Source: Curvularia clavata
Taxonomy: Eukaryota
Direction: 5' to 3'
Assembly (NCBI GenBank): GCA_023920165.1
Contig: CP089276.1
Coordinates: 930,001 to 994,000 of the forward strand
Length of the DNA: 64,000 bases
Of this stretch, positions 24,331 through 30,347 are shown one piece after another. Each line of letters starts with the position of its first letter. Position 1 is the stretch's first letter. The notes beneath the pieces were generated by a model. The model ran no database searches. It had not been told where the DNA came from and saw nothing but the letters and a program-made list of their open reading frames with translations. The translations under genes were made by a program, and so were the position numbers.

Positions 24331-25110
24331 TTAGAAGATTGCCGGTGCCCTATTGATCTCGGCAGTCGACAATTTGTCGAAGCGTAATAGAGGCTGCGCT
24401 GTGAACAATTCGAGGTTTTTGAACTCGATTTCCTAAATCGAGTTCTCACTCAAATTGATGTAACAGCGCTTGGGAAACGCTCCAGTTCCCGGCGCGGCTT
24501 TTGCGAAGCCTACTTCTCTCAGGTTCGGCAGCTCTTCGACATTGTCACAAAGCATATAATATCCCCACTGGTGTCTTGGCTTCCTTTCTTGGAGCCTCTG
24601 CCCACCAAAACTCGTAATCACGCGGAAACGGACACAGTCCTTGCCTTGCTTGTCCGTGTATTTCCTCACTACCACAATAGGATGGTCTTGTGGAGCAGAC
24701 AGCTGTGAACGGTTCCAAAAAATGGAGTCGGTAGGCGGATTGCCAAGGAATAAGACTTGCCCCTCGAGAAGGTCTTCAAACGATGGTAGAGTGGGCACGG
24801 CGGTAGTCTTTCGTGGGCAATTCCTCCAGTTTTCGGCAAGCAACCAGTGGTTCTGGTGCGGTCTTGGTGACGATGAAGGAGAGGGCGCGGAAGCGGAAAC
24901 GGATGACGAGGACGAGGACGAGGACGAGGACGATGGTGGAGACAAGGAACCTGGCCGCCAGGAGAGCGATGGCGCAGGTGAAGATGAACTGGTTGTTGGT
25001 GAAGATGGCAATGGACGCGTTGGAGTCGATGAGGGCGGCAACGGTTTTGTCCTTTTTGCCAGAATCAGCCTCGGTGCCCCAGTCGCGTGGTATTTTGAAG
25101 ATGATGCCAT
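24331..25110 (-). pseudogene. Uncharacterised fungal protein (Ser/Pro-rich N-terminus plus a compact beta-rich domain) with an in-frame TAG at 24433-24435
   Basis: 225-codon ORF with protein-like GQVLFL...HPIVVV...FRVITSFGG...KRCYINL. The same frame stays open for 33 more protein-like codons after the TAG, up to TAA at 24331-24333. Confidence 0.5.
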
Positions 25111-27553
25111 TATTGAAGCTGTGTTTGAATTATGTCAGAACGATGTGTTGGCAAGTCGGCAGGGTGGAACAAGAATAAATTGCTGGATGACTTGCGTGAC
25201 CGGGTGATAGAAGGATGGATGGAGAGAACAAACGGGGGAGCTGGGGATGTTTGCCTTATATGCTCACTTACTTTCACGACCATGGTACTTGAGTACTGGG
25301 TATTGGCCATGAAGCTCACAGAGTCATCAGGCAGCGACGATTTGTAGACGAATGACGAGTGGGTGGTGGGGATGGCGCGCCCAATGGTTTGTCTTCGTCA
25401 GTGTATGGTGAAAGAAGCGGGTGGAAAAATGGCCTGAACACCATGGTTGTGCACTGCAATGAGCAAATTCTCAAGTGGAACGACTTTTGATTCGGCCAAC
25501 GGGGCTTGTGACTGATAAATCTCTGGGGCAGCAGAGGCAGGACGAGGTAGAGCCGTAAGTTCCTGTCGAGGCCACCTCTTTTAGGAATATGCAGGATACG
25601 CCTGCGCGTGTGTTTGTAGGCAGTCGATCATGCCATGGGAAAAACGGCAAGCGGCATGGGCCATTGCAATGTACTGTCTGCATTTCAGACAGGAGAGCCA
25701 CATAGCTACAGGCTTCAACGGGTGTATAATGGGTGCAGAGGCGCTGCTAAGCCTGGCATTTCATGGTAGCAATGTTTACAAAGCCCACTCCAGCGATGTC
25801 GCCTCGTACGCCTAGCACCTTGCCCTCTATCGTGCCAGGCAGCGCTAGACTGCCGTCTGAATATCGAAATGGAAAGGGCAAAGCCACATTATTTACAGAC
25901 GAGAACCAGTAAGATTAAATAACACCTCTTCCGAGAATCACGTAGACCAGACAGTGCGAGGCACCCGTCGAGATTTCGCGATGTGCCAACCCTAGGTATT
26001 CATGAAGTAGAACCAGACCTGGCAATGGCAAGAAAGGAGTGGCTTTCGGATTGCTGGCTGGACTATGTGGCTTTGCATATGGCGGGCCGTGGAATCCTCA
26101 CGGTATTTCACCCACCTTCCTCTTTCTGAACCCACCTCAACATAGTGGTTTCCAGGCATCAAGTTGCAAACTCACCAGAGGTAGCTATCATTGTCGCTCA
26201 AGCCTGCAGATGACTCTTTGCCGTGCCAACGACGCGTCGCTAAGCCATGGGGCCATTACGAGGGCGTGAGAAGCCCTTCTGCATCTGTACACGCTGGCTA
26301 TTCGTATCCTACTAAGGCTGCCACAACACCTGAGAATTCGTATGAGAAGCCCACTGCAAAGTCCTATCTCAGCAGCGAGGACTGACATGGTTATGTCTTG
26401 TCTTGGTTAACTGCCGCTCGCTCACAGTACTCTGAGTCGTCTTACGCACCCTCCCAGTCGACCGCGCACGCAACACCATCATCTTTCCGAACTGGGCCAT
26501 ACTCGGCAGCCGATCCCAGCAGGATATTCATCAAAGCTGTTTATGCTTTGACCAATGAGATGACACGCAATTAAGGCGAGTGTGCTCCTTTAGAGCCATG
26601 GCATACAGGCTGAGAACCTCTCCAGACAGCACAAACACAGATAATCTGCGCGCGGAATATACAAGGCTTTGATCAGGAGGACATTTTCTGCTCGGTTTGG
26701 AACGTGAGCGCAACGGGAGTTACCACTGGGCCTTTTCGACGACGACAGTGCCGTTGTTCTGCGCAGGGACACGCCATTCACCTTTAGGACATCATGAATT
26801 GCTTTCGGATCCTTGCGAACAACGTAGCCGTATATGGCCCCTCAGAAAGCGCCTTACTACGTGCGTACCTGCACTCAGGACTCCATCGAAAACAGCGCCA
26901 TCTGTACGTGGGAAACGATACCTTGAGCCCTCCCAGAAACTCGAAGCAACGCTTCGCGGGCAAAGCCGAAGCTGTACAAGCCTGTGCGACGAATACTTGA
27001 CAAGGGGGAAACTAGGCCCTGTAGGCATCATACGTAGGAGTCTGGTTAGTGGAAGCCGCGGGTCAGCTTTTGTGGCCACCCTCTGCTCTTCTACGATAAT
27101 GTCGAGAACACCATCATAACTAGTCAAGGCTTGTAGTTACTGCCTTGAACAAACCTTTCTACAAAGAAACTCTGGTCTTCAGTATTGTGAAGAGAGCCTG
27201 TCTGTGCCGAGCGGAGAATCGACTTTGTGATGAATCCATTCGTAACAATGTACACCTTTACACTGCACCTGCTTCTATCCCTGTCGACCCGCATTCAATC
27301 ACTGTAGATATATGAATAGTAAAGCGCCTGGAATTGCCGTCCTCGTATTATCACAGCGAGCAATACAAAGCCTACTGCAGAGTCTCTCAAAGCACCAACA
27401 ACGCGCATTGCATACACCCCACCACCCATAGCCAGCCATATCTCGAAACCAGCAAAAATCAAACGCAGACAAGAATGGGTACTACCAAACTGCTAACACC
27501 TTGCAATGCTGAGCAGAGTACTAGCCAATCGTCCCAAAGCGCAAAAACAGTGC

Positions 27554-27560
27554 AAAAAAA
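27554..27560 (-). terminator. Oligo-T (T7) RNA polymerase III terminator just downstream of the tRNA
   Basis: aaaaaaa on the + strand, 5 nt past the discriminator base. Confidence 0.75.
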
Positions 27561-27565
27561 GATAG

Positions 27566-27699
27566 TGACAAGAGTGGGATTCGACTAGAGGGTGTTAGAA
27601 CTTGCAGTCTTAGAAAGGATTGGAGGTACAACATACACCCACGCAGATTTCTCTACTAGCACCTGAAGCTAGCGCCTTAGACCGCTCGGCCATCTTGCC
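27566..27699 (-). tRNA. tRNA-Leu(CAG) interrupted by a 52-nt GT-AG intron-like insertion (27585-27636) in the T-loop
   Basis: Acceptor stem GGCAAGA/TCTTGTC plus discriminator A; A-box TGGCCGAGCGG; anticodon stem CTAGC/GCTAG with loop TT-CAG-GT; long variable arm AGA-GAAA-TCT. T-arm GTGGG-TTCGAAT-CCCAC is restored exactly after removing 27585-27636. Confidence 0.93.
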
Positions 27700-27720
27700 G
27701 GAGTTATTTGAATACTCGAG

Positions 27721-27740
27721 CTATTATATCATATATATTC
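27721..27740 (-). promoter_or_regulatory. TATA-like element upstream of the tRNA
   Basis: Minus strand reads GAATATATATGATATAATAG, 22-41 nt upstream of the mature tRNA 5' end. Confidence 0.45.
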
Positions 27741-28824
27741 TTAGTAGTCTATTTCTCCAGTCATGGTTGCAGGGCGTTTTGTGTGTAGCGTCGAGGATGC
27801 GGGGCTGTGCGGCAGAAAATCATTCGCTGCCGAACCGAACACACGCATCAATTCAGGCGACCAGCAGCCGCGAACTAAGACTCAGCCAGAGAAAACCGCA
27901 TGAACAAGAGGCGCGCTACACTATCAAGATACCCAGTAGCTGCTGCTGCTGGCTCGATCTTGTTCCAGGCCCTCCTGCATCGGACTCATGATCCCGCTGC
28001 ATCCTCTGCATCTCACCTTCCATCCATCTCCCCCGCTACTCAAGCCTCCTACCTAGTCAGGCCCTCTATGCAAGCGTTCTAGACTCCCACGGTATCTATC
28101 AGGCGTCCAGTAAGCGAATGTGTAAAGCCCATTTCGGAAATATCCACTACTAGTCCTCTCGTTAGGCGAATCCCCGGTAGTACACATGTGTAGAAGATTG
28201 ATTTCACAGTGATGTAGGAAGAAAGCAGGGTTCCAGACCGCGGAGCGATAACACTGTGCGCTAGGAGAAAAGGAAAAAGATGGGTCTAGTGTTGCGCTGG
28301 TCAGACTCGCGTATGCGGGGGAGAATAGAAGCGAGAAGGGATCTTTTGTTTTTGCCAATGGGCTAGGGTGAGGGTGGATCACTGAAACGGCCTTTAGACT
28401 GGGATGAGGAGATGTGGAAAAAAGCAATGTTAGTCTAGAACGTCGACACGAAATACCGAAAAGTCTGGGGAAATTGATAAGGATGTACACTATGCTGGAA
28501 GAAGGAAAAGCAGCAGTGTCGGCTTTGAGCTGGAGAAGCAATGGGTGTAAGACCAGACTATTGGAACAGAAAAACAATCAAGACGACGTTTTATGACAGA
28601 ACAAGCAAGTAAAGTTGTAAAAAAGGGGCACAATCACGTAATGGAGTAGCATAGGCACACGAAGATGCATCTCGGCTTCTTCGCCGCAAAAAAAAAAAAC
28701 ATTGCATTTCTTTTGTTTTGCAACTGTCCAAAGAATTTCCAATTATGTACGAAGAACTACCGCACCACTACTCTGCGGAAACACCCCACCTCCAAGTTTA
28801 TGACCACCTTTTTCCCAACTCAAC

Positions 28825-29411
28825 CTACAAAGCAGCAGCCATGATACCTGCAACAACAGCCGCGAGACCAAACTCAAGCTTGCCGGCGCCGCTGTTGTTG
28901 GGAGCACGAGTAGAGGTAGCAGCAGGAGAGCTGGAAACGGGCGGCTTGGGTGTGCCAGTCGCAGCAGGCACAGTGCTGTTTCCGCTGTGGCTGCTAGAGC
29001 CGGAGCCAGTGCCAGTGGGGTACATGGGGGTGACATGCGAAGCTCCCGCGCCGGTAGACTTGGGGGACGAGCCAGTCGACAGAGGAGCCGTAGCAGAAGG
29101 CACGCCTGAGGCTGTATCATATTGATTAGCCCTACTATCCCTTTATAGTCGGACCCCATGTAATAGTTTGACTTACAGATCTGGACACTCTGGGCGTTGC
29201 AAATGTCGGCGAGCGCAGCCATAGCAGCGTCGGCGTCGTTGCCGCAGATCTTAGCAACCTCGGACTTGAGGTCCTTGGACTGGCAGACGCTCTTCATGTC
29301 GACGGGGCTGCTGAATTGGCTGGCGGCGCCAAGGAGGCAGGCAGGAGGCGTAGCCACGGCGAATTCAGCAAGCGCGAGGAGAGTCGCGGCAAATACAGTG
29401 CGTCCGAGCAT
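28825..29411 (-). CDS. Small secreted Cys-containing, Ser/Thr-rich GPI-anchored cell-wall protein; one intron near 29113-29176
   Basis: Signal peptide MLGRTVFAATLLALAEFAVA; TPPACLL...4-Cys domain; S/T/G stalk; NNSGAGK plus hydrophobic tail GLAAVVAGIMAAAL. Confidence 0.88.
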
Positions 29412-30347
29412 TTTTAGTGTTGGCGGGTTAAACCGGATTGGAAACGATCGATATGGGGTCGGTCTGAGAAATTAATAAATATTGCAGCCTAAAGAGTGAC
29501 TGTAGAGTGATTTGAAGTGAGCGAATGTACAGCAAAGAGTGTTGGTGAAGGAGAAAGAAAGAGGACTCGTAAAGAAGGTCAGCAAAGAGCAGTGCTCAAA
29601 GGGGCTCGTCTCACCACGCGTCCGCCAAGCCGCTGACCATTCGCTTGTCTATTTACGATCGGCGCTAGCAGGGCTTGTCAGGAACAAAGTTTCAAAACAC
29701 GCACTGATTGGATGTCGTCAAGCACCTTCGTATGCAGGAGGTCACAGCTTATAGGGTGACACGCTTTGTTGCCACGGTCTAGGCGGTCGATGGTAGGATC
29801 ATGTAAGTCGACTATTTGCAGTACGGGAGGCTCTCTGGAACCGCCACATACTTGCTCAGCTATTTTCTCTTTGATTGTGTGCTTCAGAAGCAATAGTGTA
29901 CAAGGAGAATAAGTTCGCAAATCCCGAACTGAAGACGCCGGCCTGGACCAACCAGGTGCAAAACAAGACGGTATTACAGCGATGCATCCGCAATAAAGAA
30001 CCTTCTTTTTTTGTCGGGTTTCGCAACTTTCAAAGAAAAAAAAACTAGATCGGGCAGGGAATCCAATACTAACCCGCGTGCAGGTACGATAATCTATCCC
30101 ATGTAATGCAATATGATTTCAGAGATCACAGTCGAGTTCTTCCGTCAGATTATCCAATCTGAAAAGCCGGCACCTGCCAGCGGACGTTGATACTGTCCTA
30201 CCAGTGATGCTGTGATGCGCCACAAACTCCGTCGCTAGGTATGTTACAAGTTGAGTGATAAAGCAGAAAGATGAGGATGCGATGAGACTGGAGGAGGCAT
30301 AGAGGTTGGGGTTTGTCGTTATACAGAGCGTGAGGCTAAGATGTTGA

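Follow-up and report, generated by a model that had tools for sequence, protein, structure and literature searches.

Structure of the interrupted tRNA-Leu(CAG) gene

In the 64,000-nucleotide stretch of Curvularia clavata DNA analysed in this study (the window), the minus-strand locus at 27699-27566 is a tRNA-Leu(CAG) gene, the B-box of which is interrupted by a U2-type spliceosomal intron. Neither ARAGORN nor Rfam detected a tRNA at this position in the raw window, and ARAGORN gave no match at the locus when anticodon introns were allowed, the intron being located at 54|55 and not at 37/38. When the intron was removed in silico, ARAGORN called a complete tRNA-Leu(CAG) with a perfect cloverleaf, a long variable arm and A73. 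When candidate introns were removed in this way, only one attempt among 1386 in the window created a tRNA, and none did among 4143 in other genomic DNA (200 kb, composed of twenty 10-kb stretches), which excludes a chance origin of the intron.

Exon 1 (27637-27699, 63 nt; this and all other features of the gene are on the minus strand) comprises the 5' strand of the acceptor stem, the D arm, the anticodon arm, the long variable arm and the 5' strand of the T-stem as far as T54. According to ARAGORN after intron removal, it contains the A-box (27682-27692), which is intact, as the initial annotation of this DNA had stated, and the anticodon CAG (27663-27665), which carries no canonical anticodon intron. 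Exon 2 (27566-27584) extends from T55 to the discriminator A73. The 52-nt GT-AG intron between them (27585-27636), delimited by its splice signals and by RNA contigs from two runs (X1 and X4, described below), splits the B-box. The annotation had claimed such a cut, and we confirmed it: the break falls between T54 and T55, the genomic junction at the intron's 3' end reads TAGTCGAATCC, and the residual downstream B-box letters, TCGAATCC, are present within it as described. The T7 run reported earlier was also found, 5 nt after the gene (27554-27560), where it constitutes a terminator of the Pol III type. Upstream of the gene, an AT-rich, TATA-like element occupies 27721-27740, i.e. -41 to -22 from the 5' end of the mature tRNA.

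The intron starts with GTATGT (27631-27636), which fits the U2-type 5' splice site GTRHGT, carries a CTAAC branch site (27594-27598) located 14 nt from the intron end, and terminates with TAG, in agreement with YAG. The U2-type assignment rests on the 5' site, on the branch site together with the YAG end, and on precise removal in RNA, the last being taken from contigs of a close relative; we consider it very probable that the intron is spliceosomal and spliced. This copy of tRNA-Leu(CAG), like several other tRNA genes in the genome, seems to need the spliceosome as well as an unusual start of transcription.

The genome also contains an intron-free Leu(CAG) paralog (L002), which is identical to the interrupted gene in 78 of 82 letters. 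The four differences represent two compensated acceptor-stem pairs: in exon 1 only positions 3 and 4 are affected, and the two acceptor-stem differences of exon 2 compensate for these. The existence of the paralog makes the interrupted copy dispensable. The paralog is located inside a deep RNA contig (L002:1481-2834, G000:C2 near 5578950) that includes about 1340 nt upstream and 119-186 nt downstream of it and is 5-35 times deeper than the contig of the window locus. An RRM gene, RBM8A/Y14-like by eye, lies upstream on the same strand, and the paralog apparently sits within a long 3' UTR.

The neighbours of the interrupted gene in the window include a DENN-domain gene, an ORF for a Cys-rich, Ser/Thr-rich, secreted-looking protein (28743-29471, minus strand), with a 65-nt intron that was joined in all four RNA runs used here, and a low-complexity ORF downstream of the tRNA (24433-25134, minus strand). 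For the latter two flanking ORFs, Pfam returned no family.

Evidence for removal of the intron in RNA

Four of the 24 listed runs were used (X1-X4), in the form of contigs. They come from two studies of one organism, a close relative of the source, whose flank sequence departs from that of the window at 19 of 367 positions. The contigs show neither strand nor starts nor ends, and the library type is unrecorded; we take the runs to be RNA because the intron of a neighbouring gene was joined at full depth in them.

In X1 and X4, a contig led from the unique downstream flank through exon 2, with acceptor letters of the window type, into 16 letters of exon 1. This joined form was the only path at the locus in both runs, the relative's DNA being unseen. 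The same contigs cover the flank 3' of the gene (27199-27553, not assigned to a strand) continuously with the joined exons, the one from X1 reaching from 27258 and the one from X4 from 27199. The locus contigs of X2 and X3, which show the same flank differences as those of X1 and X4, stopped on the last base of the intron (27585), a one-letter hint that an unspliced form exists. We did not accept the joint 27584-27637 seen in X2 and X3 (depth 126-132) as evidence of splicing, as its loose ends are the flanks of the paralog. The missing coverage of the intron was likewise set aside, since it proves nothing, and record 21 of X4 was rejected as a reading of the window locus, as it belongs to an interrupted Leu(UAG) gene (L014) described in the next section.

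In one contig of X4 both flanks of L014 are present, and its anchors are separated by exactly 48 letters (the length is known, the letters are not). A gap of 48 letters is what removal of the spliceosomal intron alone would leave, the 16-nt canonical intron of this gene being retained, and an unspliced gene would give a gap of 100. Judged by length, the spliceosomal intron thus appears to have been removed in this contig while the canonical one remains. To explain both joined forms by intron loss in the relative's lineage, two precise losses would be needed, one of them concerning a deeply conserved intron.

At the window locus and at L014, the joined contigs extend 295-367 nt past the gene, across T7 and further T5-6 runs. 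The L014 contig reaches from the A in a TCAT motif 13 nt upstream of the gene to a point 295 nt downstream. At the window locus, positions 27701-27860 were uncovered in X2-X4 and the downstream flank had a depth of 3.6-13, while X1 showed patchy cover at depth 2-4 across 28623-27693; in three of the four runs the depth was higher downstream than upstream of the tRNA. A depth-2 contig of X2 skips 92 nt of the intergenic stretch upstream of the tRNA, at 28147-28238 (minus strand); the skipped part has GT-AG ends and CTAAC, a hint that a non-coding or read-through RNA is spliced there.

A family of interrupted tRNA genes

The window gene is a member of a group of interrupted tRNA genes present in filamentous fungi. 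By pattern searches we found four tRNA genes in the genome with an intron at 54|55 and two with an intron in the A-box. Apart from the window gene, the 54|55 position is interrupted in Leu(UAG) (L014) and Pro(UGG) (L017), both checked after the pattern search, and in Gly(CCC) (L107), the identity of which was read by eye, ARAGORN having called it Trp. The A-box introns are located at 10|11 in two Pro(AGG) genes, L091, obtained by pattern search, and L092 (G000:C2:3063404 region, minus strand). The 51-nt intron of L092 is homologous to that of L091 and ends with CG, not AG, and the gene is possibly inactivated or using a non-canonical acceptor.

For two isoacceptors the interrupted copy could be of particular weight. 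A pattern for all Leu genes, which would miss copies with a different or broken D arm, gave 11 matches and only one UAG gene among them, the interrupted L014. For Pro(UGG), L017 may be the one intact gene, because in its intron-free paralog (L078:1481-1566, G000:C7:276499-276603) the conserved GG of the D-loop is changed to CG. We also noticed that a second Leu(UAA) gene (L084, G000:C2:2890267 region, minus strand) ends exactly after T54, with no 3' half in 1.4 kb downstream; this may be the remnant of a gene of the interrupted kind.

A metagenome scan provided 10 further loci, corresponding to 6 distinct genes, that share the 54|55 intron site. With one intron removed, 8 of these 10 loci were called Leu by ARAGORN, and L008 was so called once two introns had been taken out. 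The program assigned L005 to other amino acids, and we read this gene as Leu(CAA). Both L005 and L008 have two introns of the spliceosomal type (at 15|16 and 54|55) in addition to a canonical intron. The Leu(UAG) genes L004/L010/L011, L008 and L009 adjoin a coding exon that is also present beside L014, with 62-72% amino-acid identity. L009 and L014 are identical in all 96 exon letters and in the 16-nt canonical intron, while the interior of their spliceosomal intron has diverged. The metagenome gene L013 has the acceptor stem of the window gene, one difference in 82 exon letters and a diverged intron; no synteny with the window was found within 1.5 kb.

The splice signals were the sole invariant part of nine aligned 54|55 introns, with GTAWGT at the 5' site and the CTAA letters of the branch site present in nine of nine and interiors that were diverged to the point of being unalignable. 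In all 13 tRNA introns compared, the branch site was located at -14 to -17. A common origin of the introns across isoacceptors was considered and dropped, as we saw only scattered pairwise similarity, part of it in shared B-box-like words.

Prokaryote genomes, which served as a negative control, contained no match to the pattern of an intron-bearing tRNA. A looser pattern matched viral contigs nine times, none of these matches being a tRNA and none having a branch site. Patterns for further D-arm introns yielded one match each, neither of them a tRNA. The other matches discarded as non-tRNA were L016 (one of 4), L109 and L111 (two of 6), L090 (one of 11, by eye) and L135-L137 (three of 4).

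Promoter elements and terminators

We built a B-box matrix from 17 distinct B-boxes of the genome's tRNA genes, on which ordinary genes score 6.0-16.1 bits. The genomic junction 11-mer TAGTCGAATCC scored 1.3 bits, i.e. the locus lacks the contiguous B-box of a type 2 Pol III promoter, and we rejected the junction as a working B-box; the partial B-box that had been proposed to drive Pol III is therefore a poor candidate. The best B-box-like 11-mer of the intron (27592-27602), a degenerate sequence of putative function, overlaps the branch site. With 2000 shuffles of the intron interior as the reference, its score of 6.1 bits has p=0.046; core positions 57 and 61 are mismatched.

In the region from -150 to +350, no B-box above background was found on either strand, the best score of 6.6 bits being equal to the background median of 6.6. 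A U6-like layout was suggested in the initial annotation; in its budding-yeast form it needs a downstream B-box and does not hold here, whereas the genome's own U6 gene has a downstream B-box of 13.1 bits. The U6 gene (L105, G000:C7:1380136-1380235, minus strand) contains no intron; its TATA is at about -30, and its B-box lies about 59 nt downstream, in a stretch resembling the 3' half of a tRNA and followed by T runs.

The related genes differ widely in this respect. L008 has a perfect B-box in its second intron (54|55; 15.4 bits), and L005, in which both the A- and the B-box are broken, has no B-box above 4.1 bits and no substitute. The tRNA introns are enriched in the B-box core TTCRA (7/14, as against 2/42 among the control introns; p=4e-4), and a matrix score of at least 6 bits was reached by 6 of 14 vs none of 42; the tRNA introns in these comparisons are not independent (they include orthologs and paralogs), and the control introns are consensus-predicted, not annotated. 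With the source genome only and one gene per family, the core was found in 3 of 5 introns (p=0.006). It is missing from 5 of the 10 54|55 introns, including that of the window gene. B-boxes may be tolerant in this genome, since two tRNA-Ala(UGC) genes (L067 and L068) have an atypical B-box and a T arm without the usual G53-C61 pair.

The TATA-rich element described 22-41 nt upstream is indeed present, at exactly -41 to -22, but it is not unusual. A TATA-like motif, defined by our own pattern, occurs at -55 to -20 in 7 of the 12 interrupted genes and in 21 of 60 tRNA genes that are intron-free (p=0.19), and in 1.6% of random window stretches; we thus abandoned it as a special feature of the intron-bearing genes. 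In the relative, a contig of depth 2.4 shows changes at -27 and -32 and keeps the upstream TATATA core. In general, the upstream regions of the intron-bearing genes resemble those of the genome's ordinary tRNA genes. A YCATMRA or WATCAA motif was found within 60 nt upstream of 45 of the 60 intron-free tRNA genes (L018-L074 and L002), compared with 5.8% of random stretches, and is a candidate start-site element. A bacterial promoter scan was disregarded as irrelevant.

The absence of T runs longer than three from the intron, also pointed out earlier, is correct (the longest is 3) but ordinary, since 35 of 42 control introns are likewise free of T4. T4 runs were present in none of 14 tRNA introns and in 7 of 42 controls (p=0.17), and we did not retain their absence as a signal of selection. 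All 12 intron-bearing genes have a T5-8 run within 20 nt; among the intron-free tRNA genes, 56 of 60 have one within about 40 nt, vs 4% of random stretches. These terminators have been maintained although the interiors of the introns are unalignable. We also noted two tandem tRNA pairs without a terminator between the genes, Ser(GCU)-Ser(AGA) and Arg(ACG)-Gly(GCC) (L037 and L056).

Possible routes of transcription

The initial annotation named Pol III and Pol II as the routes to this tRNA. These two candidates are the right ones, and the paradox is real. The reading that we prefer, with about an even chance of being correct, is transcription by Pol III with weak, intron-assisted binding of TFIIIC, termination at T7, removal of the intron by the spliceosome and normal trimming. 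Pol III is favoured because T5-8 runs are kept in 12 of 12 genes and because the introns are enriched in B-box cores. Pol III would make most of the precursor, being recruited through the ordinary upstream elements and the A-box, while TFIIIC would bind weakly to the degenerate B-box-like element in the intron, following the logic of fission-yeast U6. The precursor would end at T7; the spliceosome would then excise the intron and restore the T-loop, which would let RNase P and tRNase Z act. The 3'-extended spliced RNAs of the long-RNA libraries would represent minor read-through or a by-product of Pol II; we infer that such libraries lose the 110-nt Pol III precursor, so that only the long forms appear.

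Weak transcription of the interrupted copy is probable, given its poor intronic B-box and the presence of an intron-free paralog, and both polymerases may use the locus. What speaks against Pol III is that there is no B-box above background at the locus, that half of the 54|55 introns (5/10) lack TTCRA and L005 has no B-box above 4.1 bits, and that the contigs pass T7. According to the available text of PMC5356446, TFIIIC binding is determined mainly by the B-box, and in Saccharomyces cerevisiae 7T terminates effectively, with read-through of typically 50-200 nt.

Pol II stays a candidate because a good B-box is missing from the gene itself and the spliced RNAs continue for about 300 nt past T7. 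It is possible, if on balance unlikely, that with a broken B-box Pol II starts from the gene's own TATA/initiator, recruited by TBP at the TATA, and produces a capped precursor. This RNA would undergo co-transcriptional splicing, ignore T7, extend about 300 nt further and be cut to size by RNase P and tRNase Z. Recruitment of the spliceosome is normally coupled to the cap and to Pol II, which counts for this route. The spliced contigs that pass T7 at two loci also agree with it, as do the extent of the Leu(UAG) contig, from the A of TCAT 13 nt upstream to 295 nt downstream, and the lack of cover at 27701-27860 in X2-X4 next to a downstream flank of depth 3.6-13. However, the terminators of all 12 genes and the enrichment of B-box cores in the introns would be unexpected after a long-standing switch to Pol II, and the TATA is not significantly enriched (p=0.19). 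Moreover, the long-RNA libraries would presumably show only long forms, and the contigs are blind to starts, ends and strand. In its general form, the proposal would mean that filamentous fungi make some tRNAs, including that of the sole Leu(UAG) gene found, as capped Pol II precursors that have to be spliced before a T-loop or B-box exists, and that the supply of an isoacceptor is tied to pre-mRNA splicing and lies outside the control of Pol III; this we regard as a little more doubtful again.

The interrupted gene could also be a near-silent passenger with a dead promoter, the paralog supplying tRNA-Leu(CAG) and the spliced RNA being low-level Pol II read-through from the upstream gene on the same strand or an intergenic transcript. 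The paralog, which itself lies inside a long contig, the patchy cover of 28623-27693 in X1 and the depth-2 GT-AG joint at 28147-28238 in X2 are all consistent with this, but we find it rather improbable. The two compensated pairs that separate the gene from its paralog, and the conservation of L013, which has the same acceptor stem and 1/82 exon differences despite a diverged intron, indicate selection on the tRNA. The depth is higher downstream than upstream in three of four runs, and the sole Leu(UAG) gene found, with its 96 exon letters identical in L009, would be left unexplained. It is highly unlikely that the gene is an unspliced pseudogene, with joined contigs derived from the DNA of an intron-less relative or from template switching with the paralog RNA over 14 shared letters of exon 2. 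Such an origin could be argued from the unseen DNA of the relative, with its 19/367 flank differences, from the intron being covered by no contig, from the nature of the runs, which were only guessed to be RNA, and from the 5-35 times deeper contig of the paralog. Yet the joined form is the sole path in X1 and X4, and the contig end in X2 and X3 falls on 27585. At Leu(UAG), where there is no paralog to switch with, the contig has 48 letters between the anchors, and not the 100 of an unspliced form, and the intron has been kept in syntenic genes whose neighbouring protein is only 62-72% identical. In addition, the splice signals are invariant while the intron interiors have diverged, and the joining of the neighbouring gene's intron at full depth argues that the runs are RNA.

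Significance and comparison with known systems

To our knowledge, tRNA introns are cut by the tRNA endonuclease or belong to group I or group II, and a spliceosomal class occurring in nature would open a fourth route, with some interrupted genes requiring both splicing systems in turn. In the mainly open-access full texts searched, no tRNA gene was reported to have a natural spliceosomal intron; tRNA tables of genome papers could hold cases. A phrase match in a ciliate preprint was discarded as a precedent, as the text reads 'non-spliceosomal tRNA introns'. Fungal non-coding RNA genes with spliceosomal introns have been described before; as far as the literature was searched, a tRNA host with a destroyed B-box would be new. 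Because standard tools overlook interrupted genes, fungal tRNA sets and analyses of codon usage may miss whole isoacceptors, such as Leu(UAG). The family may further serve as a natural test of how an uncapped RNA of non-Pol II origin comes to be recognised by the spliceosome and of how far Pol III works without a B-box. Such a test would be direct, since the intron-bearing and intron-free copies differ by four diagnostic letters.

Canonical eukaryotic tRNA introns are located at 37/38. The introns described here share with them a nuclear tRNA gene as the host, and several of the sister genes carry both kinds, but the position at 54|55, the GT-AG ends and the branch site set them apart. Koehrer, Vogel & Domdey reportedly engineered a yeast tRNA gene with a pre-mRNA intron in 1990 and saw its precursor spliced by the pre-mRNA machinery; that construct was artificial, whereas the tRNA-Leu(CAG) case is natural and conserved.

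The gain of mRNA-type introns by structured non-coding RNA genes of fungi has parallels in the spliceosomal introns of ascomycete rDNA and of the U1, U2 and U5 snRNA genes of Rhodotorula, cited in the available text of PMC5855946. The hosts and polymerases are different in those cases, and no internal promoter is described there as broken. Interrupted A- and B-boxes have likewise been described in tRNA genes of Cyanidioschyzon merolae, in which TATA and the T-stretch are kept and TFIIIC-independent transcription has been proposed (PMC3978253, in the part consulted). The box broken by an intron, the TATA-like element upstream and the T-stretch downstream are common to these non-canonical and permuted genes and to ours. 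In contrast to the tRNA-Leu(CAG) intron with its spliceosomal signals, the C. merolae introns have the bulge-helix-bulge form and are cut by the tRNA endonuclease; moreover, TFC1 and TFC3 are given as not identified in that alga, whereas most tRNA genes in the present genome keep normal B-boxes.

Among U6 genes, S. cerevisiae SNR6 (PMC5855946, PMC5356446, as excerpted) resembles the interrupted gene in its TATA at about -30 to -40, its intact A-box and its oligo-T terminator, but it has a downstream B block, for which the tRNA-Leu(CAG) locus offers only a background score (6.6 bits). In Schizosaccharomyces pombe U6, an intron removed by the spliceosome holds the B block (PMC5855946; on U6 introns of S. 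pombe and other fungi, Tani & Ohshima 1989, Frendewey 1990 and Canzler 2016, as cited there). As far as these sources go, the fungal U6 genes share with ours a short RNA of the Pol III class and an intron with canonical 5', branch and 3' sites and an unconserved interior, and they show that a B block can reside in an intron, although the element of the window intron is degenerate (6.1 bits). The difference is that the host here is a tRNA, in which the intron destroys the natural B-box instead of merely adding one. By analogy, U6 of the fission-yeast type would be a better model for transcription by Pol III than U6 of the budding-yeast type, the putative intronic element being clear in some of the sister genes and degenerate in the window gene.
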